This document shows, piece after piece, positions 4,141 through 61,734 of a stretch of 64,000 nt of DNA; within the stretch, counting starts at the first letter, position 1; the number at the start of each line of letters is the position of its first letter. A model generated the notes under the pieces. It worked only from the letters and a program-made list of their open reading frames with translations. It made no database searches and was not told the DNA's origin. Origin of the DNA: Candidatus Staskawiczbacteria bacterium RIFOXYB1_FULL_38_37 (GTDB lineage: Bacteria > Patescibacteriota > Minisyncoccia > Minisyncoccales > Staskawiczbacteraceae); contig MHPK01000002.1 in the NCBI GenBank assembly GCA_001822075.1, positions 75,872-139,871 on the forward strand, in the 5' to 3' direction. Made by a program: the position numbers and the translations under genes.

Positions 4141-4539
4141 ATGGCAGGCAGATTTAAAAATTGGAAAAAACCAGTTATTAAAGAAATGAAGCTCACAAAA
4201 TACAGCTGGCTGGTTCAGCATGTCAAAAACCTTGATTTAGGCTACAAAACAGATATTGGCGCCTTTACCTATATAAACGCAAAGAACAAGGTTGTGATTG
4301 AAGATTATGCGCAAATAGGCTCTCATTGCTCAATTTATTCTTTTTCCTCCATAGGAGAAAAAAACGGAAAAGTTGTTTTAAAAAAGAATTGCAAAATAGG
4401 CGCGCATTCCACGGTTATGCCGGGAGTTACTGTGGGCGAGAATTCTATTATTGGAGCGCACAGTTTTGTGGACAAAAGCATGCCCAACAATGTTTTGGCT
4501 TTTGGGGTTCCGGCAAAAATAATTAAAAAACTTAATTAA
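4141..4539 (+). CDS. hexapeptide-repeat (left-handed beta-helix) acyl/acetyltransferase
   Basis: Repeated [LIV]-G-x4 hexapeptides (IGSHCSIYS, KIGAHSTVMPGVTVGENSIIGAHS). Confidence 0.75.
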   Translation: MAGRFKNWKKPVIKEMKLTKYSWLVQHVKNLDLGYKTDIGAFTYINAKNKVVIEDYAQIGSHCSIYSFSSIGEKNGKVVLKKNCKIGAHSTVMPGVTVGENSIIGAHSFVDKSMPNNVLAFGVPAKIIKKLN

Positions 4540-4544
4540 TTTTT

Positions 4545-10430: not shown

Positions 10431-11264
10431 ATGAATAAAAATATTTTAATTTCTATAGTAATAATACTTGCCGCAATAATTGTTATTTTAGGCGCTGTTT
10501 TATTATGGCCAGTTGAACTCAATCGTTCGCAGCTACAGCAAAGCTCTGATGTTAAAGTTTTTTCTTTAACTGCCGGGGAAAAAATTTCAAATCCATTTAT
10601 AGCAGAGGGGGAAGCCAAAGGAACATGGTTTTTTGAAGCAAGTTTTCCTATTAAAATTACAGACGAACAGGGAAATGTTTTAGGCGCATCTTTTGTTCAG
10701 GCTCAGTCAGATTGGATGACAGAGAATTTTGTTCCCTTTAGGGGAGAAATATCCTTTGTATCGCCAATTGCCCAAAAAGGATATTTAGTTTTGTCAAAAG
10801 ATAATCCGTCGGGATTGCCTGAAAATGACAAGGAAATTAAAATACCCGTAGAAATTCCAAAGACCGCAGAAACAATGAAAATAAAAGTTTATTTTAATAA
10901 CAATAAAATGGATCCGGAATTTTCATGCAATAAAGTTTTTCCAGTTGAAAGAGAAATACTAAAAACAGAGTCAACTGGTTCTGCTGCCTTGGCAGAGCTT
11001 TTCAAAGGGCCTACGGAGGACGAAAAAAATCAAGGGTTTTTTACCAGCATAAACGACGGAGTGCTGCTTCAAAGCTTAATGATTGGAATGGAAAGCGGCA
11101 CGGCATGGGCTGATTTTAATGAGCAATTAGAATATCAGGTTGGAGGTTCTTGCAGGGTGTCAGCTATAAGGGCGCAGATAGAGCAGACATTAAAACAGTT
11201 TTCAACAATAAAAAATGTTGTTATTTCAATAGACGGCAGAACAGAAGACATATTGCAGCCATAA
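10431..11264 (+). CDS. membrane-anchored protein with Ig-like (Gmad2-type) and GerMN-like domains
   Basis: N-terminal TM helix; ISNPFIAEGEAKGTWFFEASFPIKITDEQGN; C-terminal GSAALAELFKGPT..EDILQP pattern. Confidence 0.55.
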   Translation: MNKNILISIVIILAAIIVILGAVLLWPVELNRSQLQQSSDVKVFSLTAGEKISNPFIAEGEAKGTWFFEASFPIKITDEQGNVLGASFVQAQSDWMTENFVPFRGEISFVSPIAQKGYLVLSKDNPSGLPENDKEIKIPVEIPKTAETMKIKVYFNNNKMDPEFSCNKVFPVEREILKTESTGSAALAELFKGPTEDEKNQGFFTSINDGVLLQSLMIGMESGTAWADFNEQLEYQVGGSCRVSAIRAQIEQTLKQFSTIKNVVISIDGRTEDILQP

Positions 11265-12428: not shown

Positions 12429-12692
12429 ATGGGAGCAATAACAAGCAAAATAAAAGAGGAACAAGAGAGAATCAGGAAAGAGGCGATAGAAAAAACAATA
12501 GGCTATATTTTGGCCGCCTTTGGCTTGGTGGCAGGCCTTGCCTGGAACGAGGCGATAAAAGGCTTAATAGATACATTTTTTCCTTTAGATAAAAACGGGC
12601 TTGTTATAAAATTTGTTTATGCTATTTTAGTAACGGTTATCGTTGTTATTGCAACGATTATTTTTGTCAGAAAAGAAAATAAAGAGGTATAA
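12429..12692 (+). CDS. small membrane protein
   Basis: Two hydrophobic helices; ATG 12429 just after the tgt stop. Confidence 0.45.
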   Translation: MGAITSKIKEEQERIRKEAIEKTIGYILAAFGLVAGLAWNEAIKGLIDTFFPLDKNGLVIKFVYAILVTVIVVIATIIFVRKENKEV

Positions 12693-15241: not shown

Positions 15242-15634
15242 ATGATAAAAATTTCTAAAAAATCACAATACGGATTAAGGGCAATGGTTTGTTTGGCAAA
15301 ACATTATAGAAAAAAAGAAGTGTGCTCGACAAAATTAATCTCTGAAATTGAAGGGATTCCTTTTGATTTTTTAGAAAAAATAATTTCGCAATTAGAAAGA
15401 GCCAAGCTGGTCAAAGGAAAAAAAGGAGTTCAGGGCGGATATATTCTTTCAATGCCCCCTAAAAAAATTAGCGTTAATGATGTGGTGTCTGTTTTGGAAG
15501 AAAACAAAAAACCGGTTAATTGCGCGCTATGCGCAAGAATTAAAAAATGTTCTGCAAAAAACGTATGGTCAAAACTCAATGATTCTTTAAACAAAACATT
15601 AAATTCAATAAAATTATCAGATTTAATAAAATGA
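15242..15634 (+). CDS. Rrf2-family transcriptional regulator (IscR-like)
   Basis: MIKISKKSQYGLRAMVCLA N-terminus; three C-terminal Cys (CALCARIKKC); precedes the Fe-S genes. Confidence 0.85.
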   Translation: MIKISKKSQYGLRAMVCLAKHYRKKEVCSTKLISEIEGIPFDFLEKIISQLERAKLVKGKKGVQGGYILSMPPKKISVNDVVSVLEENKKPVNCALCARIKKCSAKNVWSKLNDSLNKTLNSIKLSDLIK

Positions 15635-16929
15635 AAAAAATATATTTAGATTATGCGGCCACAACTCCTGTTGATAAAAGGGTTCAAAAAGCCATGATGC
15701 CCTATTTTGGCAGCCTGCCTGCCTCAAGGCAGGAAAAATTTGGCAACACAATGTCTTTGCACTCTTTTGGCCAGGAAGCAAAATTGGCTCTTGAAAACAG
15801 CAGGGCTGTTTTGGCCGATTTAATAAACGCCAAACCCAACGAAATAATTTTTACCAGCTCTGCCACAGAAAGCAACAACACGGCTTTAAAAGGAATTGCT
15901 TTTGCTTCGGCCCGCCGCAGCCCTGCCTTGCTGGCAGGCAGGCTTGGCGAAGGCGGCCATATTATAATTTCTCCCATTGAGCATCCCTGTATAATGGAGT
16001 CTTCAAAATGGTTAAAATCTAATGGGTTTGAAATAACTAAAATTCCGGTTGATAAATATGGAATGGTAAACCCGGAAGATGTCAGAAAAGCTATTACCGA
16101 CAAAACTATTTTGGTTTCTGTAATACACGCTTCAAATGAAATAGGCACGATTGAGCCTATTGAAGAAATCGGAAAAATTTGTCGAGAAGAAAAAATATAT
16201 TTTCATACTGATGCTTCGCAATCATTCGGCAAAATTCCAATTGATGTTAAAAAAATGAATATTGATTTGCTTACTGCTTCTTCCCATAAAATTTACGGTC
16301 CCAAGGGAGCAGGCCTTTTATATATAAGAGAGGGAATAAAACTTGCGCCATTATTGCACGGCGGCGGGCAGGAAAACGGATTAAGGTCGTCAACATCCAA
16401 TGTCTCCGCAATAGTCGGTTTTGCCAAAGCTGCAGAAATTTGCCAGAAGGAAATGAGGAAACCCGACAAAAGCCGAAGGCATTTTGACGGGTCCTCCACA
16501 ATTTTGCCAAAGACGAATTTGGGCGGGGAACAAAAAAGACAGGAAAAATTAAGGGATTATTTAATTAAAAATTTGTTAAAAATTAAAGGCAGTTATCTAA
16601 ACGGTCCGCCTCCAGCGAGGCAAAGCCATTCCGCGCAAAGGCTGGCAAACAATGTTAATGCAAGGTTTGATTTTATTGAAGGCGAGGCTTTAATAATACA
16701 GTTGGATATGCGAGGCATCGCTTGCTCAACTGGTTCCGCTTGCTCTTCAGCTTCACTTGAGCCAAGCCACGTTTTGTTGGCAATTGGATTGAGGCCTGAG
16801 CAAGCCCATGGGTCTTTAAGAATTTCTTTAGGCAGGCAGACAACCAAAAAAGACATTGATTATCTTTTGAAAGTTCTGCCAAAAATCATAAAACAATTAA
16901 GAGACATTTCACCATATGGCAAAAAATAA
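15631..16929 (+). CDS. cysteine desulfurase (NifS/IscS type) carrying in-frame G+C-rich insertions
   Basis: YLDYAATTP, SSHKIYGPKG (PLP-Lys), STGSACSS active-site loop; extra segments at about 15714-15733, 15908-15958, 16459-16530 and 16600-16640. Confidence 0.9.
   Translation: MKKIYLDYAATTPVDKRVQKAMMPYFGSLPASRQEKFGNTMSLHSFGQEAKLALENSRAVLADLINAKPNEIIFTSSATESNNTALKGIAFASARRSPALLAGRLGEGGHIIISPIEHPCIMESSKWLKSNGFEITKIPVDKYGMVNPEDVRKAITDKTILVSVIHASNEIGTIEPIEEIGKICREEKIYFHTDASQSFGKIPIDVKKMNIDLLTASSHKIYGPKGAGLLYIREGIKLAPLLHGGGQENGLRSSTSNVSAIVGFAKAAEICQKEMRKPDKSRRHFDGSSTILPKTNLGGEQKRQEKLRDYLIKNLLKIKGSYLNGPPPARQSHSAQRLANNVNARFDFIEGEALIIQLDMRGIACSTGSACSSASLEPSHVLLAIGLRPEQAHGSLRISLGRQTTKKDIDYLLKVLPKIIKQLRDISPYGKK
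16459..16530 (+). repeat. 72-bp G+C-rich double-hairpin element, copy A (inside the cysteine desulfurase gene)
   Basis: AAACCCGACAAAAGCCGAAGGCATTTTGACGGG... ; all 5 differences from copy B are A or T in this copy. Confidence 0.9.
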
Positions 16930-17419
16930 TAATGTTTGCGGGGGTCTGTATACGTCAAAAGTTATGGAAACTTTTAAAAACCCCCACAACTTTGGAAAAA
17001 TTAAAAATCCAGACGGCACAGGAAAAGTCGGAAATATTGTATGCGGTGACGTAATGCACCTTTATATTAAAGTAGGCCGCAACAAGAAAAATCAGGACAT
17101 TATAAAAGACGTAAGGTTTGAAACTTTTGGCTGCGTGGCAGCCATTTCAACCAGCAGCATTATTACTGATATGGCAAAAGGAAAAACAATAAACAGGGCT
17201 TTGAAAATTACAAAAGATAATGTTATTAAATCTTTAGGAGGTTTGCCTAAAATAAAATACCACTGCTCTGTTTTGGCTGTTGATGCTTTGACAGAAGCTA
17301 TTTTTGACTATTTAACAAAAAATAAAATGCCTATTTCAGAAGAGTTTAAAAAAAGACACGAAATTATTAAAAAATCAGAAGAAATAATAAATGAAAGATA
17401 CAAGAAGTGGGAAAACTAA
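16916..17419 (+). CDS. Fe-S cluster scaffold protein (IscU/NifU N-terminal type)
   Basis: GNIVCGDVM, FETFGCVAAISTSS, YHCSVLAVDAL cysteine motifs. Confidence 0.85.
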   Translation: MAKNNNVCGGLYTSKVMETFKNPHNFGKIKNPDGTGKVGNIVCGDVMHLYIKVGRNKKNQDIIKDVRFETFGCVAAISTSSIITDMAKGKTINRALKITKDNVIKSLGGLPKIKYHCSVLAVDALTEAIFDYLTKNKMPISEEFKKRHEIIKKSEEIINERYKKWEN

Positions 17420-18437
17420 AAAGGTTTTTGTGGCAATGTCGGGGGGAGTAGACAGCTCGGTTTCAGCTGCCTTGTTAAAGCAAGCTGGGTTTGATGTATC
17501 GGGGGTTTATATGCGCCAGTGGAGCCCTAAAGTTTTAGGGCAGGAATGCATTTGGCGAGGAGAGCGTCAAGATGCTATGAGAGTGGCTCAAAAGCTTGGC
17601 ATTAAATTTTTGACTTGGGATTTTTCAAAAGAATATGAAAAAGAGGTGGGTAAATATATGATTAACTCTTATAAAAATGGCGTTACCCCAAACCCCGATG
17701 TTATGTGCAACAAAATTATAAAATTCGGATTATTCTTCGACAAAGCCATAAAATCCGGAGCTGATTTTATTGCAACGGGCCACTACGCAAAAATAAAAAA
17801 TAGCAAACTTTTAGAAGCAAAAGATAAAAACAAAGACCAAACATATTTTTTATGGACTCTAAATAAAAATCAGCTTTCAAAAATTTTGTTTCCGGTGGGC
17901 GGCATCACAAAGCCAGAAGTCAGAAAATTGGCTAAAAAATTCAAACTGCACATAGCTGGAAAAAAAGACAGCCAGGGAATTTGCTTTATAGGGCCGCTTG
18001 ATATGAAAAATTTTTTGAAATCATATATCAAGCCTAAAAAAGGGCAGATATTATCTTTGAGCGGAGAACCAATCGCTGAACATGACGGAGTATATTATTA
18101 CACAATAGGCCAGAGGCATGGATTAGATATTAAAAACGGCAAAGGCCCTTATTTTGTTATAAAAAAAGATGTTAAAAAAAACATAATATATGTTGGCAAA
18201 GAAAAGGATTTGCTTTCAAAAAGGGCAGTAATAAAAAACATTCACTGGATTGAAAAGCCCAAAGGGTTTCCGGTTCAGCTTTCAGCCAAAATGCGTTATC
18301 GCGCGCCATTAGCGAAAGCAAAACTTTTTAAAAACAGAGAGTTAATTTTTCAAAAACCCCAGAGGGCTATAGCCCCTGGGCAATCGGCTGTTTTTTATAA
18401 GGCGAATAATGTGCTGGGCGGAGGAATTATAGAATAA
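17391..18437 (+). CDS. mnmA: tRNA 2-thiouridine(34) synthase
   Basis: VAMSGGVDSSV PP-loop, NPDVMCN, KDQTYFL, SQGICFIG. Confidence 0.9.
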   Translation: MKDTRSGKTKKVFVAMSGGVDSSVSAALLKQAGFDVSGVYMRQWSPKVLGQECIWRGERQDAMRVAQKLGIKFLTWDFSKEYEKEVGKYMINSYKNGVTPNPDVMCNKIIKFGLFFDKAIKSGADFIATGHYAKIKNSKLLEAKDKNKDQTYFLWTLNKNQLSKILFPVGGITKPEVRKLAKKFKLHIAGKKDSQGICFIGPLDMKNFLKSYIKPKKGQILSLSGEPIAEHDGVYYYTIGQRHGLDIKNGKGPYFVIKKDVKKNIIYVGKEKDLLSKRAVIKNIHWIEKPKGFPVQLSAKMRYRAPLAKAKLFKNRELIFQKPQRAIAPGQSAVFYKANNVLGGGIIE

Positions 18438-18452
18438 AAATTTCTTCAGCTA

Positions 18453-18480
18453 TTGACAAGGTTTTTTATTTTGCTACAAT
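18453..18480 (+). promoter_or_regulatory. sigma70-like promoter of the copper operon
   Basis: TTGACA - 16 nt - TACAAT. Confidence 0.6.
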
Positions 18481-18482
18481 AG

Positions 18483-18503
18483 ACCTATACCATAGGTATA
18501 GGT
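18483..18503. promoter_or_regulatory. candidate CsoR operator (perfect palindrome)
   Basis: ACCTATACC-ATA-GGTATAGGT immediately after the -10, upstream of an operon encoding a CsoR-family repressor. Confidence 0.55.
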
Positions 18504-18524
18504 GTTAACGCAATTTTATCAATT

Positions 18525-18881
18525 ATGAAAAAACATATTTATATAATTTTATTTTCAATTATTTTTACTGTTATTTTTCTGCCGGTGTTTTCTGCTTTTG
18601 CCCATGGGATAATGGGTTATGGCGATGACGACTATGGCATAATGGGCTACGGAATGATGGGATATGGGATTTTGCCCTTCGGCTGGATAGGATTTATTTT
18701 GATGGCTTTTTTCTGGGTTTTGATTGCGGTTATTATTTTTGCTGTTGCGAGGTGGGTTGTCAGCGCCTTAAGCCACAAAGACGAAAGCCGCAATTCAGCG
18801 CTGGATATTTTGAAAGAAAGATATGCTAAAGGCGAAATTAATAAAGAGGAATTTGAAGATAAAAAAAGAGATTTGTCATAA
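18525..18881 (+). CDS. membrane protein with Met/Gly-rich repeats and C-terminal SHOCT-like motif
   Basis: GIMGYG repeats, TM helix, LDILKERYAKGEINKEEFEDKKRDL. Confidence 0.55.
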   Translation: MKKHIYIILFSIIFTVIFLPVFSAFAHGIMGYGDDDYGIMGYGMMGYGILPFGWIGFILMAFFWVLIAVIIFAVARWVVSALSHKDESRNSALDILKERYAKGEINKEEFEDKKRDLS

Positions 18882-18944
18882 ATATCAAAAGGTCAGAGCA
18901 AAAAATAAAAAATCAATAATAATAATTTTTAATAACTACCTTAT

Positions 18945-19217
18945 ATGACAATTAACAAACAAAAATCTTTGATAAATTTTAAGAAAGCCCACAGCCTTTT
19001 GGCTAAAATTGCAGATATGACAGAAAAAAACGATTACTGCATTGATATTATGCAGCAAAATTTGGCTGCAATAGGGCTTTTGAGGTCAGCCCACGAAATG
19101 CTGATGGAAAATCATTTAAACTCGTGTTTCAAGACAGCCATGGCATCAAAAAATGAAAAGAAGAAAAAAGAAATGACGGACGAGATATTAAAAGTCACAA
19201 AATTATTTAATAAATAA
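18945..19217 (+). CDS. csoR: CsoR/RcnR-family metal-sensing repressor
   Basis: 90-aa helical protein; CIDIMQQ..AHE..H..C pattern of the DUF156 family. Confidence 0.75.
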   Translation: MTINKQKSLINFKKAHSLLAKIADMTEKNDYCIDIMQQNLAAIGLLRSAHEMLMENHLNSCFKTAMASKNEKKKKEMTDEILKVTKLFNK

Positions 19218-19234
19218 TAACCAATATTAAACTT

Positions 19235-20749
19235 ATGAATAAAGAACATATATATAAGGTTGAGGGCATGCACTGCGCTTCATGCGAAATTTTAATTGAA
19301 AAAAAGCTTTTGGATTTGCAGAATATCAAATCGGTTGACGCTTCAACCGCCAAAGGAGAGGTTATTATAGAATATGAAGGCGGCAGGCCGAATCCTGAAA
19401 GATTGAGCAGAATTTTCAAAGAGGAAAATTATATCTTTTCTGATAAATCTGTTGATGCAAAGATAATTTCTTCTGAAAAGAAAACTAATGCAACTTTAGT
19501 CGCCTTTAACATAGCCATTTTCATAATTATCGCCTTTTTATTGCTGCAGAAAATGGGCATTGCTAATTTTATCAGCCTGGACTCAACGTCATCTTTATTC
19601 GCATTTCTGGGATTTGGGTTCTTGGCCGGAATGTCCAGTTGCGCGGCGCTGGTTGGCGGAATTGTTTTATCAATGTCAAAGCAATGGAATAATCTTTATT
19701 CAGAAGACCAGTCAGCTTCAAAAAAGCTTCAGCCTCATATAATGTTTAATACAGGAAGAGTTATTTCTTATATCGTTTTAGGCGGAGTTTTGGGAATGAT
19801 AGGGAGCCGGCTGCAAATTTCTCCTCAATTCACGGCATTTTTAATTGTTGCTGTTTCTCTGTTAATGGTTGCTTTAGGCTTGCAGATGCTCGGGGTAAAA
19901 GCATTTAGAAAGTTCCAAGTTTCAGCTCCAAAAACAGCAACAAGATATATTGCCGATGAAAATAATTTTCAGGGAAAGCATATGCCGTTTATTATGGGAG
20001 CTTTAACCTTCTTTTTGCCCTGCGGATTTACAATAACCGCGCAAAGTTTGGCCCTGCTTTCCGGAAATGTTTTTCAGGGCGCATTAATAATGGGAGCATT
20101 TGCTTTAGGAACAGTTCCTTCGCTTTTATTTATCGGATTGTCTAGCGTGAAATTTTCTTCAAAACCTCATTTAGCAGAAAGATTCTCAAAGGTTGCAGGA
20201 TTTTTAGTCATATTTTTTGCATTATTCAATATATCCTACCAAGCAAATGTTTTAGGATTTACCGGATTCAGCAATATTGTTGGCCAAAGCCAGACACAAA
20301 ATGTTGTTGATGAAAAAGACTTGCCTCCGATTGTTGGCGGCAAGCAGGTTATAAAAATGACAGCTTACAGCTCAAAAGATGTTCCAAATTATTTTAAAGT
20401 AAGGGTGGGGGTTCCTGTAAGATGGGAAATAACCGCAGACAGTTCGGCCGGAGGATGCAATAGCTCAATTATTTCTGGCAGTTTGTTTTCGGGAGCGATT
20501 CCTTTAACTCCGGGACAAATTTCAATAAAAGAATTTACTCCGCAGAAGACAGGTAAATTTAGATTCAGCTGCCAAATGGGCATGATTTCAGGGATTATAG
20601 AGGTTGTAAATGTCAGTAATGCGAGCAGTAATTCGGGGATAGAGACGGCTTCTGCCGCCTCCAGCGCAGCTAATGATCAAGTTGTTCCATCGGGGGCAAG
20701 CGGGTGTGGCTGTGGCGGAGGTGGCGGTAACGCCTGCGGGGCAAAATAG
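19235..20749 (+). CDS. fusion protein: HMA metal-binding domain, TauE/DsbD-like permease, cupredoxin-like domain and Cys/Gly tail
   Basis: GMHCASCE; about 6 TM helices; C-terminal VRVGVPVRWEITA..FRFSCQMGMISG; tail GCGCGGGGGNACG. Confidence 0.6.
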   Translation: MNKEHIYKVEGMHCASCEILIEKKLLDLQNIKSVDASTAKGEVIIEYEGGRPNPERLSRIFKEENYIFSDKSVDAKIISSEKKTNATLVAFNIAIFIIIAFLLLQKMGIANFISLDSTSSLFAFLGFGFLAGMSSCAALVGGIVLSMSKQWNNLYSEDQSASKKLQPHIMFNTGRVISYIVLGGVLGMIGSRLQISPQFTAFLIVAVSLLMVALGLQMLGVKAFRKFQVSAPKTATRYIADENNFQGKHMPFIMGALTFFLPCGFTITAQSLALLSGNVFQGALIMGAFALGTVPSLLFIGLSSVKFSSKPHLAERFSKVAGFLVIFFALFNISYQANVLGFTGFSNIVGQSQTQNVVDEKDLPPIVGGKQVIKMTAYSSKDVPNYFKVRVGVPVRWEITADSSAGGCNSSIISGSLFSGAIPLTPGQISIKEFTPQKTGKFRFSCQMGMISGIIEVVNVSNASSNSGIETASAASSAANDQVVPSGASGCGCGGGGGNACGAK

Positions 20750-20755
20750 TAAAAT

Positions 20756-20956
20756 ATGACAAAGATTACATCAAAAACTATACTAAAAGAAATATTGGAG
20801 AAGAAAAGAGGCGCAGAAATTTTAATGAAAAATAACGTGCCTTGTTTGTCTTGCCCCATGGCTTCATTTGAAATTGATAAACTGAAAATTGGCGAAGTTT
20901 GTAAAATGTATGGATTAAATTTGGAAAAAATATTAAAAGAGCTGAATAGAAAATGA
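20756..20956 (+). CDS. DUF1858-like small redox/disulfide domain protein
   Basis: 66 aa; PCLSCP motif; overlaps the copA start. Confidence 0.5.
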
Positions 20957-23256
20957 ATCAAAAAATAACTTTAAAAATTCAGGGAATGGACTGCGCTTCA
21001 TGCGCGGCTGTTATTGAACATAGTTTAAAAAAAACAAAAGGAGTTGTTTCGGCTTCCGTTAATTTTGCAACAGAAAAAGCGTATTTAGAATTTGATTCTG
21101 AAAAGACAAATACAGATGGTCTTAAAAAAATTGTTAAAGATTTAGGTTATAAGGCATTAGATGAAGATGAAGATAATGCTTCAACTGATGTTAAAACCGA
21201 TGACCATTCCGACCATCATAAAACAGAAAAAGACCTGCCTGCCGGCAGGCAGGACAGTGAAATTAAAAAGTTAAAACTTCGTTTTGTTTTATCATTGGTT
21301 TTTAGTTTGCCGGTTATTTATATGGTTATGGGCGGCATGTTGGGATTTCCAATGCCTGAAGTTTTTGAAAAATATGGTATTTTAATACAGGCGATTTTAT
21401 CAACAGCCGTGATTTTAGCTTCTTTTAATATTTGGCAATCCGGATTTAAAAAACTTTTGCGATTGGCTCCCAATATGGACTCTTTAATTCTTATTGGCAC
21501 AGCCACTGCTTATTTTTATAGTTTAGTAAATGCAGAATTTTTGCTGGCAGGAAGAGAAATAAGCATGGAAAATTTTTATTTTGAATCAGCCGCTTTTATT
21601 TTAGTTTTTATTTCTTTAGGCAAATATTTAGAAGCAGTTACAAAGGGAAAGACTTCGGCGGCGATTAAAAGTTTAATCGGATTGCAGCCTAAATTTGCGA
21701 TAATTATAAAAGACGGCAGGGAGCTGGAAGTTCCTATTTCCGAAGTGGCGGCAGGAGATATAATTTTGGTAAAGCCCGGTCAGAAGATTCCTGTTGACGG
21801 AATTGTGATTGACGGCTATTCCGGTGTTGATGAAAAAGCAATTACAGGAGAATCAATCCCGGTTGAAAAGAAAAAGGGAGACGAAGTTATCGGGGCCACA
21901 ATAAATAAAACCGGAGTTTTGCAATTTAAAGCAACAAGAGTTGGTAAAAATACCATGCTGGCCCAAATAATAAAAATAGTGGAAGAGGCTATGGGCTCTA
22001 AAGCGCCGATACAGCTGTTAGCAGATAAAGTTTCATTTTATTTTGTTCCGGCTGTGATAGCAATCGCTTTAATTTCTGGATTAGTTTGGTTTTTAGCCTT
22101 AGGCCAAGTTCCTATGGCTCTTACAATTTTTGTGGCGGTTTTAATTATTGCTTGTCCATGCGCATTGGGATTGGCAACTCCAACAGCAGTTATGATGGGC
22201 GCGGGCTTGGCCGCAGAAAGAGGAATTTTAATTAAATCCAGCAAGGCGTTAGAAATCGCCAAAGATGTGAATATGGTTGTTTTTGATAAAACTGGCACCC
22301 TAACAAAGGGCGAGCCGGTTGTTACGGAAATTATTTCTGTTGATAAAAAAATAAATGAAAAAATTATACTGGAAATTGCAGCTTCTCTGGAAAAAAATTC
22401 TGAACATCCCTTGGCTCAGGCAATTGTCAACAAAGCCAAGGAGGAAAAGCTTGCCCTGAGTAAAGTCGAAGGGTTTCAGGCAGTTCCAGGCAAGGGAGTG
22501 GAAGCAATGCTGAAAGCTGAAGCCACCTTCGCCAAGGCTTCGGCGAGCCAAAGAAAGATTTTGTTGGGGACAAGAATGCTTATGAAGGATAGCAAAATTT
22601 CTGCTGATTTTATTGAAGATAAAATGATAATCCTTGAAGACCAGGGAAAAACAGCCATGATTTTGGCTGTCGGTAAAAAAATTGTCGGGATTATTGCTGT
22701 TGCAGATGTTTTGAAAGAAAATTCCAAAGAAGCAGTTGATATTTTGCATAAAATGGGAAAACAAGTGGCGATTATTACAGGAGACAACAGAAGAGTTGGA
22801 GAGGCAATTGCCAAGCAATTAGGGATTGACAGGGTTTTAGCCGAAGTTTTACCGCAAGGAAAATCTGATGAAATAAAAAAATTGCAGAATGAAGGAAATA
22901 TCGTGGCAATGGTTGGAGACGGCATAAATGATGCTCCGGCTTTAGCTCAGGCAGATTTGGGCATTGCTTTGGGCTCTGGAACTGATGTGGCAATGGAAAC
23001 CGGAGAAATTGTTTTAATAAAAGACGACTTAAGAGATGTTGTAAAATCAATGGATTTGAGCAAATATACTTTGAATAAAATAAAACAAAATTTATTTTGG
23101 GCGTTTTTTTATAATATAGTTGGAATTCCAATTGCGGCTGGCGCCTTATATCCTCTCACTGGTTGGCTTTTAAATCCGTCTATCGCGGCAGGAGCTATGG
23201 CTTTTTCATCAGTCAGCGTTGTGCTGAACGCTTTGTCTATGAAAAGATATAAATAA
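20953..23256 (+). CDS. copA: copper-translocating P1B-type ATPase
   Basis: [26 protein letters not shown]; in-frame palindrome at 21234-21253. Confidence 0.95.
21234..21253. repeat. perfect 20-bp palindrome CCTGCCTGCCGGCAGGCAGG inside copA
   Basis: Read directly; encodes LPAGRQ. Confidence 0.9.
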
Positions 23257-23325
23257 AACTCACTGGTCAAGGATTGATTTTATATAATTTTTAGTGTTTA
23301 ATAAATATATCTTAATTTGAAAATA

Positions 23326-23721
23326 ATGGATAAAACAGCAATACTTATTGTAGTTATAGTGATATTAGCGGCAGCCGGATTTTGGGCATGGCAGTCCGGT
23401 TTTTTTACAGACACTTTTAAGCAAATTCCTATTTCCGAGGGAATAATTTTGTTTTATAGAGAGGATTGTTCTCATTGTAAAAATGTTGAAGATTTTGTAA
23501 CCCAGAATAATATAGAAGAAAAAGTTGAATTTACCCGGCTTGAAGTTTTGAAAAGCGCAGATAATCAGAATATTTTGGCTCAAGTTGTAGGCAAATGTAA
23601 ATTAAATCCAAAGGAAGTTGGAGTTCCATTTTTATGGGATGGACAAAATTGTTTAATAGGAGATACGGATATTATAAACTTTTTTTCAAAATACATAACA
23701 AGCAATGAAGAAAGCAAATAA
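23326..23721 (+). CDS. membrane-anchored thioredoxin/glutaredoxin-fold protein
   Basis: TM helix then FYREDCSHCKNVE (CxxC). Confidence 0.55.
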   Translation: MDKTAILIVVIVILAAAGFWAWQSGFFTDTFKQIPISEGIILFYREDCSHCKNVEDFVTQNNIEEKVEFTRLEVLKSADNQNILAQVVGKCKLNPKEVGVPFLWDGQNCLIGDTDIINFFSKYITSNEESK

Positions 23722-24217
23722 AATTTTAATTTTTTTAAGCTTTTCGACTATGGCATTAAGCGCAGCAAAAATTGCAAATGCCGTATGCCCGGTTTGCGTT
23801 GTGGCTGTGGGAGCAGGACTTGGTTTTTCAAGGTGGATTGGAATTGATGACGCAATTTCTTCTATGTGGATTGGCGCCTTGCTGGTTTCTTTAAGCATTT
23901 GGACAATAATTTGGCTTGATAAAAAGGGATGGGGATTCAAATATAAAAAAATTATTGTTCCTGCCGCCTATTATCTGCTTACGTTTCTGCCTCTTTGGTA
24001 CTATGGCATAATAGGCCATCCTTTTAATATAATTTTTGGCATTGATAAAATAACGTTCGGCATAATTTTTGGCACAGCAGTTTTTCTGGCAACCGTATGG
24101 TTTCATAATTATTTAAAGCAAAAAAATAACGGCAAATCTTTTTTTCCTTATCAGAAAGTTGTTTTGCCGGTTGTAATTTTATTAATTTTTAGCACAATAT
24201 TATGGACAATAATATAG
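23705..24217 (+). CDS. integral membrane protein with CPVC motif
   Basis: Signal/TM segments; AVCPVCVVAVGAG. Confidence 0.45.
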   Translation: MKKANKILIFLSFSTMALSAAKIANAVCPVCVVAVGAGLGFSRWIGIDDAISSMWIGALLVSLSIWTIIWLDKKGWGFKYKKIIVPAAYYLLTFLPLWYYGIIGHPFNIIFGIDKITFGIIFGTAVFLATVWFHNYLKQKNNGKSFFPYQKVVLPVVILLIFSTILWTII

Positions 24218-29931: not shown

Positions 29932-31035
29932 ATGAAAGATTTAGATTTTCCGTTATTTAAAACAAAGCAAGAGCCATACAAAAAGTTTAATTTAACTGAC
30001 CAAAAACAACGTCAGGAATATTTTGAGTACAAAGCAGGCGAGGAAATCAAAAAATTAAGGGAGTATTTAAAAGAAAACACTTTTATTGCATATTTAATGG
30101 GTAAAAAATCTTCTGGCAAAGGAACTTACGCTAAAATGTTGGCTGAGGTTGTAGACAAGGACAAAATTGCTCATTTTTCAATTGGGGACATGGTGAGGTC
30201 TTTTGACGAAGTTATAAAAGACCCGGAAAAAAGAAAGGGAATTAAAGAATATTTGGGAAAAAATTACAGGGGTTTTATGCCTTTAGAAAAAATAATGGAA
30301 TCTTGGGACAACCGGAGCACAAAAACTCTTTTGCCGTCAGAATTGATTTTAGCTTTGATAAAAAGAGAAATAGCAAAATTAGGCAGAAAAGCAATTTTTA
30401 TAGATGGATTTCCGCGCGATGTTGACCAGGTTTCTTATTCTTTGTTTTTCCGCGACTTGATAAATTACAGGGAAGACCCCGATGTGTTTGTTTTAATAGA
30501 CGTGCCAAGCTCTGTAATTGACGAGCGCATAAAATATAGGGTTGTCTGCCCTGCCTGCAACACTTCAAGGAATTTAAAGCTTTTGGCAACAAAGGTAGTT
30601 GAGTATGATAAAAAAGAAAAAAAATTCCATTTGCTTTGCGACAATTCTGCATGCCCGTCGCTAAAAACCGGAAAACCAGCCAGAATGGTTACAAAAGAGG
30701 GAGATGAACAGGGTATTGGCCCCATAAAAGAAAGGCTGGATAAAGACGAGATGCTGATAAAAGAAGCTTATAAATTACAGGGGATTCCAAAAGTGCTTTT
30801 AAGAAACTCAATCCCGGTTAATAAAGCAAAAGATTTTGCAGATGATTATGAAATAACTCCCGAGTATGTTTATAAATTTGATGAAAAAGAAAATCCGCCT
30901 GCTGGCGGAAAAGTTGAAATTTTAGAAAAGCCGTGGGAAATAAAAGACGACGAGGGAGTTTTATCAAACTCATTGATGCCTCCTCCAGTTGTTGTTTCTT
31001 TAATAAGGCAATTAGTGTCTGCGCTAAACATTTAA
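29932..31035 (+). CDS. adenylate-kinase-family protein with N- and C-terminal extensions
   Basis: P-loop GKKSSGKGT, FIDGFPRDVDQV, zinc-lid-like CPACN..C..C. Confidence 0.55.
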   Translation: MKDLDFPLFKTKQEPYKKFNLTDQKQRQEYFEYKAGEEIKKLREYLKENTFIAYLMGKKSSGKGTYAKMLAEVVDKDKIAHFSIGDMVRSFDEVIKDPEKRKGIKEYLGKNYRGFMPLEKIMESWDNRSTKTLLPSELILALIKREIAKLGRKAIFIDGFPRDVDQVSYSLFFRDLINYREDPDVFVLIDVPSSVIDERIKYRVVCPACNTSRNLKLLATKVVEYDKKEKKFHLLCDNSACPSLKTGKPARMVTKEGDEQGIGPIKERLDKDEMLIKEAYKLQGIPKVLLRNSIPVNKAKDFADDYEITPEYVYKFDEKENPPAGGKVEILEKPWEIKDDEGVLSNSLMPPPVVVSLIRQLVSALNI

Positions 31036-31235: not shown

Positions 31236-31306
31236 TCGGGGAAGGGAGAATCGAACTCCCGCCGCACGCACCCCATGCGTGAATCCTGCCATTGGACCAT
31301 TCCCCG
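31236..31306 (-). tRNA. tRNA-Pro (GGG)
   Basis: Hand-folded cloverleaf: CGGGGAA/TTCCCCG acceptor, anticodon loop AUGGGGU, T-arm GGGAG-UUCGAUU-CUCCC. Confidence 0.9.
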
Positions 31307-36739: not shown

Positions 36740-37936
36740 ATGTCAGCAGAAAAATTTGAGAGGTCAAAACCTCACGTAAACATTGGCACCATTGGCCACG
36801 TTGACCATGGAAAAACCACTTTGTCAGCCGCAATTATGAAAATTTCAAAATTGCGCGGTTTTATGGCGTCAGACAAAAACGTTGACCAGATTGACGCTTC
36901 TCCCGAAGAAAAGAAAAGGGGAGTCACAATTTCTATTACGCATTTGGAATGCGAAACTCCAAAAAGACACTATGCTTTAATTGACTGCCCGGGCCACGCA
37001 GACTACATTAAAAACATGATTACGGGAGCAGCTCAAATGGACGGCGGAATTTTGCTTGTGTCAGCTCCAGACGGGCCTATGCCCCAGACAAGAGAGCATA
37101 TTCTTTTGGCAAGGCAGGTAGGTTTACCTTCATTGGTTGTATTTATGAACAAATGCGACATGGTTGACGACCCTGAAATTTTAGACCTTGTTGAATCTGA
37201 AGTAAGGGAATTGTTAAAGAAAAACAAATACCCGGGCGACGAAACTCCAATTATAAGAGGTTCAGCTTTGAAAGCTTTGGACGCAACATCTGTTGATGAT
37301 GCGGCCGCCAAGCCAATTGTTGAATTGCTTGATGCAGTAGACAACTATGTTCCAGAGCCTGAAAGAGATTTAGACAAGCCATTTTCAATGGCAATTGAAG
37401 ACGTATTTTCAATTGAAGGAAGAGGAACAGTAGCCACAGGCAGAATCAGTAGAGGAATAATAAAAGCAAACGATGAAGTTGAAATTGTGGGAATAAGGCC
37501 TACACAAAAAACAATTGCAGTGTCTGTTGAAATGTTCCAAAAATCTTTGGATCAGGGGCAGGCAGGCGACAACGTTGGAATTTTGTTAAGAGGCTTGAAA
37601 AAAGAAGATGTTGAAAGAGGCCAGGTAATCTGCAAGCCAGGTTCAATTTCTCCTCACACTGAATTTGAGGCAGAAGTTTATGTTTTGACAAAAGAGGAAG
37701 GCGGAAGGCATACTCCATTCTTTTCAGGGTATAAGCCGCAGCTTTATATTGGAACCTCTGACATAACAGGAGACGTAACTTTAGCTGAAGGAACTGAAAT
37801 GGTTATGCCTGGAGACACAGCCAACTTAAAAATTAAATTGATAGCCCCTGTAGCTTTAGAGGAAAACCAAAGGTTTGCAATCAGGGAGGGCGGAAAAACA
37901 GTTGGCGCTGGAGTAGTAACAAAGATAGCCAAGTAA
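36740..37936 (+). CDS. tuf: elongation factor Tu
   Basis: [28 protein letters not shown]. Confidence 0.98.
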
Positions 37937-37958: not shown

Positions 37959-38366
37959 ATGCCCGTTAAAAAATCAACTGCTACAAAGAAAAAAGCCAGC
38001 CTGCCTGCCGGCAGGCAGGCAAAAAAGGCAGCAAAAACAGAACAAAAGCCTGCTGAGCAGGCTTTGCCAAAGCTTCGCATAAAATTGCGCGCCTATGACC
38101 ACAAAATAATTGATAACTCAGCTCGCCAGATAATTGACATTGCAAACAGATACGGAGTTGAGGTTATAGGGCCTGTTCCTCTGCCAACAGAGGTGCTAAA
38201 GTTCACTGTAAACAGGTCAAGCTTTGTGCATAAAAACGCAAGAGAGCAGTTTGAAATGCGGGTGCACAAAAGGGTTATAGACATTTTGAATCCCAGCCAA
38301 GAAATAGTAGAAGCCCTGAGAGATTTAAATCTTCCTTCAGGTGTTGACATTACGGTTAAAATATAA
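37959..38366 (+). CDS. rpsJ: 30S ribosomal protein S10 with an apparent 38-aa N-terminal extension
   Basis: Core LRIKLRAYDHKIID..; the extension contains the palindrome at 37999-38020; a later non-ATG start cannot be excluded. Confidence 0.85.
   Translation: MPVKKSTATKKKASLPAGRQAKKAAKTEQKPAEQALPKLRIKLRAYDHKIIDNSARQIIDIANRYGVEVIGPVPLPTEVLKFTVNRSSFVHKNAREQFEMRVHKRVIDILNPSQEIVEALRDLNLPSGVDITVKI
37999..38020. repeat. perfect 22-bp palindrome GCCTGCCTGCCGGCAGGCAGGC in the rpsJ 5' region
   Basis: Read directly; encodes LPAGRQ in the same frame as in copA. Confidence 0.9.
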
Positions 38367-47275: not shown

Positions 47276-48553
47276 ATGTGGTACGATAAAATATTATTTT
47301 TCTTCAAAAATAAAGAGCTTAGGAATAAATTTTTATTTGTTCTTTTTTTGCTTGTAGTTTCCAGGGTGGCAGCAAACATACCTATACCCGGAATCGGAGT
47401 TGAAAATTTAAAGAAATTTTTTGACCAAAACCAAGTTTTCGGTCTTTTAAATATATTTACAGGAGGGGCTTTGAGCAATTTTTCAGTAGCATTGCTTGGT
47501 TTGGGGCCTTATATTACAGCTACAATTATTTTGCAGCTGCTTACAATGATTTTTCCAGCCCTGGAAAGATTATACAAAGAAGAAGGGGAAGCGGGTAGAA
47601 AAAAATTCAACCAATATGCAAGGCTGTTCACAATTCCCTTGGCAGCTTTTGAGGGATATGGAATGCTGATGGTGTTTCAAAGGCAGGGCGTAATTTCAGC
47701 TTTTTCTTTGCCTATTTTGATAAGCTCTATTATAACTATCACAGCTGGAGCTATGTTTTTGATGTGGCTTGGAGAAATTATTTCTGAACAGGGGCTGGGA
47801 AACGGTATTTCGCTTTTAATTTTTGCCGGAATAGTCGCCCATGTTCCAATTAATATTTTTCAGACGTTTGCGGCATGGGACCCATCAAAAATCCCTTCTT
47901 ACTTGGTGTTTGCAATTTCGTCTATAATTATAATAGCTGGAGTTGTTTTGATTACAGAAGCTCGCAGAAATATTCCGGTTTCTTACGCAAAGAGGGTCAG
48001 GGGCATGAAAATGTATGGCGGAACTTCAACATACCTTCCTTTAAGCGTAAATCCGGCTGGAGTTATGCCTATAATTTTTGCGCTTTCCATACTTTTATTC
48101 CCAAGCATAATAGCCAGTTATTTTGGAACTTTTTCAGGAATTGTTGGAAGCGCGGCCACAGCTATCGGGTTATTTTTTAATAATCCATGGGTGAACGGAA
48201 TATTTTATTTTTTGCTGGTGATACTTTTTACTTACTTTTATACAGCGGTAACATTTGACCCTAAAACAATTTCTGACAATCTGCAAAAAATGGGAGGATT
48301 CGTTCCTGGCGTAAGGCCAGGCAGGCCGACATTAGAATTTTTAAAGCATATTTTAAACAGGGTTTTGTTTACAGGAGCTATATTTTTAGGCTTGATAGCT
48401 GTTTTGCCTTCAGTTGTGGCTGGGGCCACAGGAGTTACCGGCTTTACCTTTTTGATTGGCGGCACTTCTTTGCTGATTATTGTAAGCGTTGTTTTAGACA
48501 CAATGCGCCAGGTTAACGCCCAGCTCCAAATGAGAGAATACGAAACCTTTTAA
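47276..48553 (+). CDS. secY: preprotein translocase subunit SecY
   Basis: 10-TM pattern, IPIPGI, GLGPYITATIILQLL, GNGISLLIFAGI. Confidence 0.95.
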   Translation: MWYDKILFFFKNKELRNKFLFVLFLLVVSRVAANIPIPGIGVENLKKFFDQNQVFGLLNIFTGGALSNFSVALLGLGPYITATIILQLLTMIFPALERLYKEEGEAGRKKFNQYARLFTIPLAAFEGYGMLMVFQRQGVISAFSLPILISSIITITAGAMFLMWLGEIISEQGLGNGISLLIFAGIVAHVPINIFQTFAAWDPSKIPSYLVFAISSIIIIAGVVLITEARRNIPVSYAKRVRGMKMYGGTSTYLPLSVNPAGVMPIIFALSILLFPSIIASYFGTFSGIVGSAATAIGLFFNNPWVNGIFYFLLVILFTYFYTAVTFDPKTISDNLQKMGGFVPGVRPGRPTLEFLKHILNRVLFTGAIFLGLIAVLPSVVAGATGVTGFTFLIGGTSLLIIVSVVLDTMRQVNAQLQMREYETF

Positions 48554-48555
48554 AT

Positions 48556-48630
48556 CACATAATACATAACATAGAACACATAACAACTACGTTTTCGTTT
48601 TGTTTCATGTTTTATGTTTCATGTTCTATG
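48556..48630 (+). repeat. CA-arm/TG-arm imperfect hairpin with the adk start codon at its 3' foot
   Basis: CACATAATACATAACATAGAACACATAACAAC-TAC-GTTTTCGTTTTGTTTCATGTTTTATGTTTCATGTTCTATG. Confidence 0.5.
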
Positions 48631-50870: not shown

Positions 50871-50874
50871 ATTT

Positions 50875-51272
50875 GTCCTAATAAGACCGTAAGCCGAATT
50901 CTGTTTTATGCAACCATCTGTCTTGGCTTAGAATTACTCCTAAGCTCTGGCGAACTACTTTGCTCCCTCATCAAGCTTTAAAATTCATAAATGAATTTTC
51001 CAGGCTTTACCCTGAGCTTGTCGAAGGGTTTGTTCTTGCGCCCAATAAGGATTTAGCCGTTTCATTTTTACATTGCTGTAAAATTATCCCATGAAGGGAT
51101 GCTGAACCTTTCGGTCCAAGCCGTTTCTGTTCGCACCTCGTCCGCCCGCAACTGCGTAGCTGTTGGCGGAGACGGCTGTTAGCCGCTATTATTTTATCCC
51201 GCCATAGGCGGGAGGGTGTTCGGACTTTCCTCTCTTCATTAAATAAAGAGCGATTGCTCGTCTTATTAGGAC
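50875..51272 (-). ncRNA. rnpB: RNase P RNA (bacterial type)
   Basis: Minus strand has GAGGAAAGUCCGAACACC (CR-I), 3' ACAGAAUUCGGCUUACGGUCUUAUUAGGAC pairing with 5' GUCCUAAUAAGACGAGC (P1); about 398 nt. Confidence 0.85.
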
Positions 51273-61112: not shown

Positions 61113-61143
61113 GTAGAGTATATCGTTTAAATCGATATATCAT

Positions 61144-61498
61144 CGCGCCTTGGAGGAGTAGTACCTCGACAGTCTCATATTGTAGCCTCGTGCGATTCGA
61201 GGCAAAATGTGACCCCGAGCGGTAACGCTCGGCGGAAAAATTCCTTAAATTGCTGGAAACCCTGCAAGCATCCTAAAATACTACTATGCGTAGTAGCATG
61301 GTAGTGATAATTTTTAGGCGATGCAGACAATCAGCAGCCAAATCCACGAAAGTGGAGAGGTTCAGAGACTATAATAGGAATTACCAATTCGTGTGCCTGC
61401 CGGTAGGCAGGAATTGGTAAGTGGTATAGTCCATTCCTTTTAGCGATAAAAGGTAAAAAAAGAAGCTGTAGGCCCTGGTGCAATTCCAGGAGGCGCAA
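61144..61498 (+). tRNA. intron-containing tRNA (CAU), initiator-like; exons 61144-61178 and 61463-61498
   Basis: Cloverleaf forms only after removing 61179-61462; C1xA72 mismatch, A11:U24, U8, U33, anticodon CAU. Confidence 0.7.
61179..61462 (+). ncRNA. group I intron in the anticodon loop (no ORF)
   Basis: Core elements AAAUUGCUGGAAACCC, GCAGCCAAAUCC, GUUCAGAGACUAUA, GGUAUAGUCC; 5' exon ends in U, intron ends in G. Confidence 0.75.
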
Positions 61499-61511
61499 CA
61501 TTTTTAAATCG

Positions 61512-61585
61512 GCCGGGGTAGCTCAGTTGGTAAGAGCGTTGCACTCATAACGCAAAGGTCGGGAGTTCGAATCTCCCCCTCGGCA
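61512..61585 (+). tRNA. tRNA-Met or tRNA-Ile2 (CAU), elongator type
   Basis: GCCGGGG/CCTCGGC acceptor, loop CUCAUAA, T-arm GGGAG-UUCGAAU-CUCCC; CCA not encoded. Confidence 0.9.
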
Positions 61586-61589
61586 CAAT

Positions 61590-61665
61590 GCGGGCGTAGT
61601 CCAGCCTGGTTTAAGACGCCTCCCTGTCACGGAGGAGATCAGGGGTTCAAATCCCCTCGCCCGCG
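61590..61665 (+). tRNA. tRNA-Asp (GUC)
   Basis: GCGGGCG/CGCCCGC acceptor, loop CUGUCAC, T-arm AGGGG-UUCAAAU-CCCCU. Confidence 0.9.
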
Positions 61666-61734
61666 CATGAAGCTTTCAATACGAGAGACCTGATTTCCCG
61701 ACTGAGAATTTTTCTCCCGTTTTTGGTTATTCAC

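Follow-up and report, generated by a model that had tools for sequence, protein, structure and literature searches.

A 20-nucleotide G+C-rich palindrome in the CopA, NifS and S10 genes of a Staskawiczbacteria genome is a probable minimal mobile element

Why should the same perfect, G+C-rich palindrome lie inside different protein genes of one bacterium? The question is raised by a 64,000-nucleotide stretch of the genome of Candidatus Staskawiczbacteria bacterium RIFOXYB1_FULL_38_37 (contig MHPK01000002.1, positions 75,872 to 139,871 of the forward strand), hereafter the window, in which the 20-mer CCTGCCTGCCGGCAGGCAGG occurs in both copA and rpsJ, the gene for ribosomal protein S10. We call this sequence, which consists of two abutting 10-nt inverted arms, PAL. 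Our best reading is that PAL behaves as tiny selfish DNA, with recent and repeated insertions in protein genes, tRNA-like genes and spacers of its host, here a groundwater bacterium.

Copies of the palindrome in the window

Across 83 kb of this genome we found two perfect and three decayed copies of PAL, located in the window as follows (ORF, open reading frame):

21234-21253: perfect copy in CopA (ORF 20953-23256), read as DLPAGRQD in the linker that joins the HMA domain to the membrane part
37999-38020: perfect copy in S10 (ORF 37959-38366), read as SLPAGRQA in a lineage-specific N-terminal extension; PAL itself spans 38000-38019 and is extended here to a 22-bp palindrome
15714-15733: decayed copy CCTGCCTGCCTCAAGGCAGG, three mismatches, in NifS (ORF 15631-16929), read as SLPASRQ
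15922-15942: decayed PAL-like copy of 21 nt, CCTGCCTTGCTGGCAGGCAGG, also in NifS, read as PALLAGR
61392-61411, plus strand: PAL-like hairpin TGTG-CCTGCC-GGTA-GGCAGG, three mismatches, at the P8 tip of a group I intron

A preliminary description of this DNA, made from its letters alone, had reported the perfect copies in copA and rpsJ as well as degenerate ones in the cysteine desulfurase gene (nifS, at 15714 and 15922) and in the group I intron, and we confirmed all of them, with their coordinates and sequences. It had also given the palindrome as 100% G+C, which is wrong; PAL contains two T and two A and is therefore 80% G+C. The recurrence is beyond chance, as none of 100 dinucleotide-preserving shuffles of the window yielded a match to PAL with three or fewer mismatches. 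The window has a G+C content of about 37%, with nearly all genes on one strand, and perfect G+C-rich hairpins with stems of at least 8 bp are almost absent from its 64 kb apart from the PAL copies, for which the predicted folding energies are -15.7 kcal/mol (copA segment) and -21.2 kcal/mol (rpsJ segment). The closest named homologues of its S10, CopA and NifS proteins belong to Candidatus Staskawiczbacteria (Parcubacteria/Patescibacteria). Assemblies of the Staskawiczbacteria-like population are present in over 80 index blocks of the assembly collection.

PAL can be read through as LPAGRQ because it has no stop codon in any frame. Being palindromic, it encodes the same three peptides from both strands. 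The two frames other than LPAGRQ (PACRQA and CLPAGR) both contain cysteine. The statement that coding copies are always read as LPA(G/S)RQ holds for three of the four in the window; the copy at 15922 carries an internal 1-nt indel and is read in another frame as PALLAGR. Elsewhere all three frames are used, with 10 LPAGRQ, seven PACRQA and five CLPAGR readings among the copies found in long ORFs of other genomes, while the S10, CopA and NifS families together use the LPAGRQ frame in about eight of nine independent insertions.

Filled and empty sites in CopA, NifS and S10

When comparing the window with a related locus (L162), we found that positions 17280-23933 align at 96.6% identity and that the 6.6 kb contain just three indels, among them a 21-nt insert in the window (21232-21252) that includes PAL. 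At this copA site the window reads aaaaaGACCTGCCTGCCGGCAGGCAGgacagt and L162 reads aaaaa-gaaagt, an adjacent A-to-C change accompanying the insert, and the empty site AAAAAGAAAGTG has no seed of PAL within it. At the protein level, the CopA of the window and homologues P0122, P0123, P0125 and P0132 have the insert in a segment that reads HHKTEK(D/A)..., and it is missing from P0124 and P0126-P0131, which read HHKTEKESEIKK.

The NifS protein of the window is 432 aa long, compared with about 385 aa in most relatives. Its insert at 15714 is common to the window and P0241, while P0243 and P0244 read SLPAGRQ at that site and the DNA of loci L164 and L165 carries CCTGCCTGCCGGTAGGCAGG there. An empty site, 21 nt shorter, was found in L166 (TATTTT/TCAG/AAAAATTC), and P0242 is a close relative without the PAL insert. 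The insert is common to proteins that are about 75% identical and has one to three substitutions, three in the version of the window; it is an older insertion that is now decaying. The copy at 15922-15942 sits in a longer G+C-rich insert (15903-15958), with flanks that resemble those of the PAL copy in L105. In other lineages of the NifS family, PAL-type peptides occur at four further positions (AACLPAG, LPAGRHG, LPAGRQA and LPAQAG), and we count no fewer than four or five independent sites among the lineages. We also considered CLPAGR in P0262 as a separate insertion in another frame and rejected it, as it is a point mutation of the same NifS insert.

For S10, the best 120 homologues are all 121-142 aa long and have a K/T/A-rich (lysine-rich) N-terminal extension of about 25-45 aa that nearly always starts with MPVKK, MPAKK or a close variant. 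LPAGRQ occurs at the site of the window in P0001 and P0002 only. P0019, P0024 and P0090 carry it at three other positions, and the relatives that come next in closeness (P0003-6 and P0021) lack it. PAL has thus entered the extension at four positions in different lineages, each time in the LPAGRQ frame. In the DNA at this site, the window exceeds L156 by 24 nt and L159 by 21 nt, and L161 exceeds L159 by 18 nt. It had been suggested that the PAL-containing region might be a tuf-rpsJ leader with a downstream non-ATG start, which we reject because the extension is conserved in all 120 homologues and holds four independent in-frame PAL insertions. The same two facts argue that the extension is translated and a genuine part of the protein in this clade. 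In the adjacent tuf, GGCAGGCAGG at 37553-37570 is ordinary coding sequence for the EF-Tu segment GQAGDN and no half-copy of PAL, so that half-sites can be coincidental.

PAL is therefore an insertion and not a conserved protein motif, given the absence of 21 nt in a 96.6% identical relative, the varying positions of LPAGRQ or its absence in CopA, S10 and NifS relatives, and the decay of old copies. Close relatives of all three proteins lack PAL. Of the two outcomes that the preliminary description had set against itself, a frequency no higher than chance and conservation of the segment in orthologues, we found the opposite in both cases.

Occurrence across phyla and viral contigs

An exact-match scan of 185,579 species-representative genomes, with taxa assigned by record title, placed the PAL 20-mer in at least 120 stretches, and these span more than ten phyla. 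The matches listed include 38 from Bacteroidota, 36 from many classes of Patescibacteria, 10 from Omnitrophota, six from Planctomycetota and 11 metagenome-assembled genomes labelled Gammaproteobacteria, together with one or a few each from Verrucomicrobia, Elusimicrobia, Ignavibacteria, Chloroflexi, Nitrospirota/Thermodesulfovibrionales, Desulfobacterota and Bdellovibrionota; there are none from Firmicutes, Actinobacteria, Cyanobacteria or Archaea among them. Seven of the Bacteroidota are cultured (Winogradskyella echinorum, Flagellimonas yonaguniensis, Longitalea luteola, Flavivirga sp., Aquiflexum lacus, Agriterribacter humi and Aestuariivivens sediminis). PAL is also present in contigs of 60-70% G+C, and in ribosomal protein S6 of L047. 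An apparent conservation of site between WWE3 (L043) and Daviesbacteria (L047) was dismissed, since the proteins are unrelated, a glycosyltransferase-like membrane protein in the first and ribosomal protein S6 in the second.

Among IMG/VR viral contigs, PAL was found in 35 stretches with 44 copies, compared with none for each of three control palindromes of the same arm composition, GGCAGGCAGGCCTGCCTGCC (arm-swapped), CCGTCCGTCCGGACGGACGG and CCTCGCCTGCGCAGGCGAGG. The exact sequence is absent from 50,697 GenBank phage records and 72,556 PLSDB plasmids, where the best plasmid match (Runella) proved to be a coding coincidence, TGLPAGR in an aldehyde dehydrogenase. Full-text literature searches for the 20-mer, its 12-mer core and LPAGRQ returned nothing relevant.

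One viral contig of 29.5 kb (IMGVR_UViG_3300037242_000417; L141, L148 and L149) has six PAL copies, several of which are inside longer repeats of the form gggtgccccatcctcgcggttttt-PAL-cgagggtgggtctg... in both orientations.

Anatomy of the insertion sites

To describe the sites we analysed 164 distinct PAL copies, using the 162 with 40 nt of flank on each side where flanks were needed. Most copies lie outside long ORFs, with about 22 of 124 genome copies inside. At least nine are in tRNA or tRNA-like sequences, all as clean 20-nt inserts, and most of these are placed between the last base of the D-loop and the 3' strand of the D stem (L015, L037, L085 from Agriterribacter, L099, L152 and L030), with junctions such as TAGA/PAL/GCGC, GGATA/PAL/GAGC and GGTA/PAL/GAGC. 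In a phage tRNA-Met the insert is in the variable loop (L122 and L145), and the L145 sequence is still recognized as a tRNA by ARAGORN and Rfam (50 bits). When PAL was deleted from the tRNA contexts, ARAGORN called only two as tRNAs, and the remainder include several 5' fragments or, possibly, genes with introns.

Such 5' tRNA fragments bearing PAL or its nested 40-nt form (described below) were observed 15-250 nt upstream of intact tRNA genes (L015 4020-4162, L030 3617-3800, L037 2105-2477 and L301 3205-3366), and the fragment in L030 duplicates the 5' half of the downstream tRNA-Val.

Local hairpins surround PAL more often than random sites, with stems of at least 6 bp flanking 18 copies (6.0 expected) and stems of at least 8 bp flanking six (0.9 expected). 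In 13 of the 18 hairpin-flanked copies PAL abuts a stem strand. The intron copy of the window fits the same pattern; it directly abuts the 3' strand of the P8 stem and is a shorter 16-nt form with a GGTA loop.

The group I intron itself (Rfam RF00028, 66 bits, 61177-61453; region 61142-61500) splits a tRNA-like gene after the CAT anticodon and lies directly upstream of tRNA-Met (61512-61586) and tRNA-Asp (61590-61666).

We did not find target-site duplications, as the lengths of direct repeats flanking PAL match those at random sites. Direct repeats of at least 7 nt (7-14 nt) flank seven of the 164 copies, and these apparent duplications were rejected because all seven copies are at unit boundaries of tandem heptamer arrays. 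The junction is nevertheless not random. With both sides pooled, A precedes PAL in 41% and T in 9%, and 117 of 162 copies split an R^K dinucleotide or its reverse complement, compared with about 71 expected under a uniform dinucleotide model (our own calculation). The GT[AG]G head of repetitive extragenic palindromic (REP) elements is not enriched next to PAL (8 of 162, with 7.0 expected). Neither is a T-run within 8 nt (14 of 162, with 16.3 expected), so PAL lacks this feature of an intrinsic terminator, and the copies in the window also differ from a terminator in being inside ORFs. Net insert lengths in ORFs are 21 nt for CopA, 21 nt for NifS and 18, 21 or 24 nt for S10.

All-against-all clustering of the 3,420 ORFs within 4 kb of PAL revealed no protein family in more than seven of 155 neighbourhoods. 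On these grounds we rejected a shared neighbouring transposase or endonuclease gene.

Self-nesting and variants

In the unbiased set of copies, both cases of PAL inserted into PAL split the host copy into 11 and 9 nt (11/9), as CCTGCCTGCCG/PAL/GCAGGCAGG, which puts the insertion point within the CCGG loop, a single base ahead of the 3' strand. Counted at this offset, the exact nested 40-mer occurs in 55 metagenome stretches, where it has about 45 unrelated flanks and contig G+C contents range over 32-73%. These loci include triple nesting (L262, L275 and L292) and D-loop sites of tRNAs (L305/L310 and L301), and the base following the 40-mer is never A (0 of 56).

The PAL loci also hold many copies with one to three mismatches or small indels. 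One variant with a GGTA center, CCTGCCTGCCGGTAGGCAGG (CCTGCCTACCGGCAGGCAGG on the other strand), recurs in unrelated loci (L038, L086, L087 and the NifS site of L164/L165) and is present in 12 viral stretches, compared with one for a control variant that also differs by a single transition. In 17 of 20 copies G is its oriented 5' neighbour. The GGTA variant is either a propagating sub-family or the product of a deamination hotspot in the central GCCGGC.

Hairpins of the form CCCTCTCC-N4-GGAGAGGG accompany or enclose the GGTA variant in L087 (~1040-1100), L173 (~940-1010) and L174 (~300-370 and ~4480-4550), and also occur in L023 and L094. They may represent another widely shared hairpin module.

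Proposed mechanism and alternative explanations

We consider it probable that PAL is an ultra-small, non-autonomous mobile (selfish) hairpin element, about 20 nt in size, which disordered protein segments tolerate when it is in frame. This is because it has present and absent alleles, occupies many independent sites, forms clean inserts in RNA loops, nests at a single offset, has a non-random junction, decays after insertion, is found in phage contigs and has no linked gene. The polymorphism, the independent sites, the spread across phyla and phages, the specificity relative to controls, the nesting at one offset, the lack of duplication and the decay can be seen directly in the alignments and scans.

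Under this reading, a unit of about 20 nt would be inserted repeatedly by a trans-acting activity that is not encoded beside PAL. Its target would be transiently single-stranded DNA or an extruded hairpin loop, with a favoured position in the loop beside the stem, including tRNA D-arms, the intron P8 tip and the CCGG loop of PAL itself, and insertion would leave no target-site duplication. Selection would then filter the copies. Clean 20-nt inserts would persist in non-coding and RNA-loop contexts, and the survivors in ORFs would be those with a net length that is a multiple of three (18, 21 or 24 nt), located where the protein is disordered or at its surface (the S10 extension, the linker between CopA domains and presumed surface loops of NifS and S6) and mostly in the cysteine-free frame LPAGRQ. 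An inserted copy, having no evident host function, would decay by point mutation and small indels. As a guess, the enzyme might be a structure-specific HUH/Y1-like or similar protein, possibly phage-borne; the nearest precedent is the HUH/Y1-type transposase proposed for REP elements.

Several observations weigh against this reading. Copy number is low, mostly one stretch per genome among the matches listed and two perfect copies in 83 kb here, unlike the typical bursts of mobile repeats, and elements co-evolving with a host-specific transposase do not usually share an identical 20-mer over more than ten phyla. No mobilizing enzyme was identified among the ORFs within 4 kb of PAL. Several of the tRNA sequences that carry PAL are not intact genes but 5' fragments with an intact tRNA gene shortly downstream, the enrichment in hairpin loops could partly reflect tolerance instead of targeting, and the metagenome count of nested copies covers the 11/9 offset alone. 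In addition, ORF inserts of 18, 21 or 24 nt do not match the 20 nt seen in RNA-gene contexts, a difference that needs either an imprecise process or secondary indels (compare the A-to-C change beside the copA insert).

Part of this pattern would also be expected from an enzyme-templated repair scar, in which a conserved polymerase or reverse transcriptase-like activity extends a nick or break by the fixed 10-nt tract (CCTG)2CC and then snaps back to copy the tract. PAL would then be made de novo each time, for example at a nuclease-sensitive hairpin loop, with its sequence set by the enzyme or template. We regard this as unlikely, even though it fits the same sequence in unrelated phyla at low copy number, the missing spacer, the lack of target duplication, the hairpin-loop sites and the variation of a few nucleotides in junction length. 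Snap-back synthesis would not yield the asymmetric GGTA variant, which is found in many loci and is 12 times commoner than its control in viral contigs, although deamination of methylated C in GCCGGC could account for it. The recurrence of the 40-mer as a unit is also against a scar, as is the fact that such an enzyme was not seen among PAL loci, and to our knowledge no enzyme makes fixed-sequence snap-back repair scars. An independent origin of PAL in many genomes, by template-switch (quasi-palindrome) mutation or slippage of CCTG/CAGG tetramers, is very improbable. Template switching copies local sequence and should yield different products from locus to locus, yet PAL is an identical 20-mer amid flanks that do not resemble it; the composition-matched control palindromes gave no hits, and empty sites such as AAAAAGAAAGTG in copA have no seed. 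The one-step formation of perfect hairpins by template switching (treated in a preprint) and the tetramer periodicity of PAL would suit such an origin, but longer periodic versions are rare, with a CAG extension in three loci only.

A perfect palindrome of 16-28 bp is typical of protein sites, and parS, which genes can tolerate within them, is conserved across phyla. Because PAL has this form and size and some copies lie between A-runs and T-runs (L040 and L072), we considered a selected cis-element, either a binding or recombination site (parS-, dif- or operator-like) or a structural RNA or terminator hairpin. This is highly unlikely, as PAL is present or absent among relatives that are 96-99% identical, decays with age, has no positional conservation and shows no enrichment of T-runs (14, with 16.3 expected), and as a regulatory site would have no reason to nest within itself. 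A restriction, recombinase or protein-binding role as a host function, raised by the preliminary description, appears disfavoured for the same kind of reason, namely the polymorphic and decaying copies in tRNA loops, the intron tip and arbitrary ORFs. Nearly precise excision, as in Tn10, leaves small palindromic remnants of inverted ends, and isolated half-sites in some loci might suggest that PAL is such a remnant of a larger transposon with the 10-bp ends CCTGCCTGCC...GGCAGGCAGG. We found no full-length element bounded by both arms in 1.24 Mb of PAL loci, the half-sites have the appearance of decayed PAL copies, PAL is not flanked by a target duplication, and the fixed 11/9 nesting would need repeated insertion and excision at one position, leaving little to recommend this explanation. 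Most matches are metagenome-assembled genomes, which could point to an assembly or sequencing artefact, but independent samples assemble identically (L167 and L168 are 100% identical to the window), seven cultured isolates and assemblies that are apparently long-read or complete by record name carry PAL, and reading frames are kept; the chance of an artefact is negligible. None of these alternatives fits the polymorphism, specificity and nesting as well as a mobile element.

Comparison with known repeats

Similar to REP elements and their associated transposases (REP-associated tyrosine transposases, RAYTs), PAL is a short G+C-rich hairpin (REP units are 20-40 nt) that is non-autonomous, presumed to be mobilized in trans as single-stranded DNA and free of target duplication, and it shares with the REP unit a stem-loop-capable G+C-rich palindrome, here of 20-22 bp. 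Unlike REP elements, PAL is a perfect palindrome without a spacer, lies inside ORFs and RNA genes and not only between genes, has no GTAG head, is low in copy number (REPs reach hundreds per genome) and is identical across phyla instead of species-specific. RAYT genes often have REPs beside them; we saw no RAYT gene near PAL, no family being present in more than seven of the 155 neighbourhoods. Rickettsia palindromic elements (RPEs), which are about 100-150 bp long, have a family-specific consensus and are restricted to Rickettsia, resemble PAL in being inserted in-frame in ORFs and in RNA genes (for PAL, CopA, NifS, S10, tRNA loops and the P8 tip). PAL differs in its length of 20 bp and its spread over more than ten phyla and phage contigs, with a Parcubacteria host here.

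In mitochondrial genomes, GC clusters and hairpin elements show a sporadic distribution, altered flanking bases and merging of clusters (PMC4478555), and this class includes yeast GC42, sponge RHE, fungal double-hairpin elements and byp elements (PMC4478555, PMC2800124). They are like PAL in being G+C-rich hairpins in A+T-rich genomes that are sporadic in close relatives, nest, target coding and RNA genes and lack an explained mechanism. They are, however, organellar and about 30-60 nt long, and GC42 is flanked by AG on both sides, whereas PAL is found in bacteria and phages and has no duplicated dinucleotide. Bacterial MITEs, short for miniature inverted-repeat transposable elements (Correia, ERIC, RUP and others), are also small non-autonomous insertions that can land in genes, but they are 50-500 bp long, have an internal segment between terminal inverted repeats and make target duplications of fixed length, in contrast to the 20 bp, abutting arms and lack of duplication in PAL. 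HIP1, the DNA uptake sequences DUS/USS and parS similarly involve a specific short palindrome that recurs in coding regions in a preferred frame. These arise or persist by point mutation with selection or biased repair, and all except parS are lineage-specific, whereas PAL appears as a discrete indel and then decays.

We thus classify PAL with the small palindromic non-autonomous mobile repeats, although it fails the tested defining features of REPs, RPEs, MITEs and GC clusters. More tentatively, and with less confidence than we place in mobility as such, PAL, its GGTA variant and the 40-mer could form an undescribed minimal class of mobile DNA. This class would be defined by a 20-bp spacer-less palindrome, spread across phyla and phages, and duplication-free integration at the loop-stem junction of hairpins (tRNA D-arms and its own loop) by a structure-specific, probably horizontally transferred enzyme, and it would be a measurable source of small peptide inserts (LPAGRQ) in essential proteins of genome-reduced bacteria of the Candidate Phyla Radiation (CPR).

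If this is true, PAL would be an extremely small transposable unit with an exact sequence common to several phyla, and part of the unusual protein and RNA insertions of CPR bacteria would be explained. Its enzyme could reveal a new structure-directed insertion chemistry at hairpin loops without duplication, and bears on the long-standing open question of how REP-like repeats and organellar GC clusters move. For annotators, segments such as LPAGRQ, PACRQA and CLPAGR would then be parasitic inserts and not functional motifs. PAL and the 40-mer also provide a simple sequence marker for tracking horizontal exposure.

Other small inserts and hairpins

Besides additional inserts in NifS, two further G+C-rich inserts were found in protein genes of the window:

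22515-22547, plus strand: 33-nt G+C-rich hairpin insert AGCTGAAGCCACCTTCGCCAAGGCTTCGGCGAG in CopA, differing from PAL and absent from P0125-P0175
30895-30909, plus strand: 15-nt in-frame insert CCGCCTGCTGGCGGA relative to L156, read as PPAGG

The 33-nt CopA insert is present only in the closest relatives, and it shows that PAL is one of several G+C-rich mini-insert families in this genome. Related peptides (KASAGQ, KASDGQ and SAKASASQ) recur as inserts in NifS relatives, and the sequences suggest a second mini-insert family containing CTTCGGCG. The 15-nt insert is related to TCCGCC-N4-GGCGGA hairpins that accompany PAL elsewhere; with spacers of 3-4 nt, hairpins of this type were seen at 30895-30909 in the window and in L011, L015, L016, L032, L040, L108 and L110. 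The exact 16-mer TCCGCCAGCTGGCGGA occurs in seven PAL-containing loci of different phyla. As an equally specific cross-phylum element it is a weak candidate, being only 2.3 times as frequent in viral contigs as its arm-swapped control (55 compared with 24).

In the related genome of L156, nearly every spacer of the ribosomal protein operon contains hairpin or MITE-like inserts of 60-140 nt. The MITE-like ones, about 100-140 nt long and bounded by CCCCGTTAGAA...TTCTAACGGGG (3197-3300, 10513-10616 and 16776-16915), are absent from the window. Intergenic hairpins made of inverted 7-nt arrays, (CACATAA/CATAACA)n ... (TGTTTCA/TGTTTTA)n, occur at 48553-48630 in the window and in nearly every S10-spc spacer of L156 (for example 12544-12611, 17808-17887 and 19144-19219), where the spacers of the window are compact. 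PAL copies of other phyla are often at unit boundaries of similar heptamer arrays (L101, L129, L082 and L121). In these reduced genomes, indels seem to arise to a significant extent from elements of these kinds. The sole clear minus-strand genes of the window are those for RNase P RNA (50874-51269, Rfam 104.5 bits) and tRNA-Pro (31236-31306).

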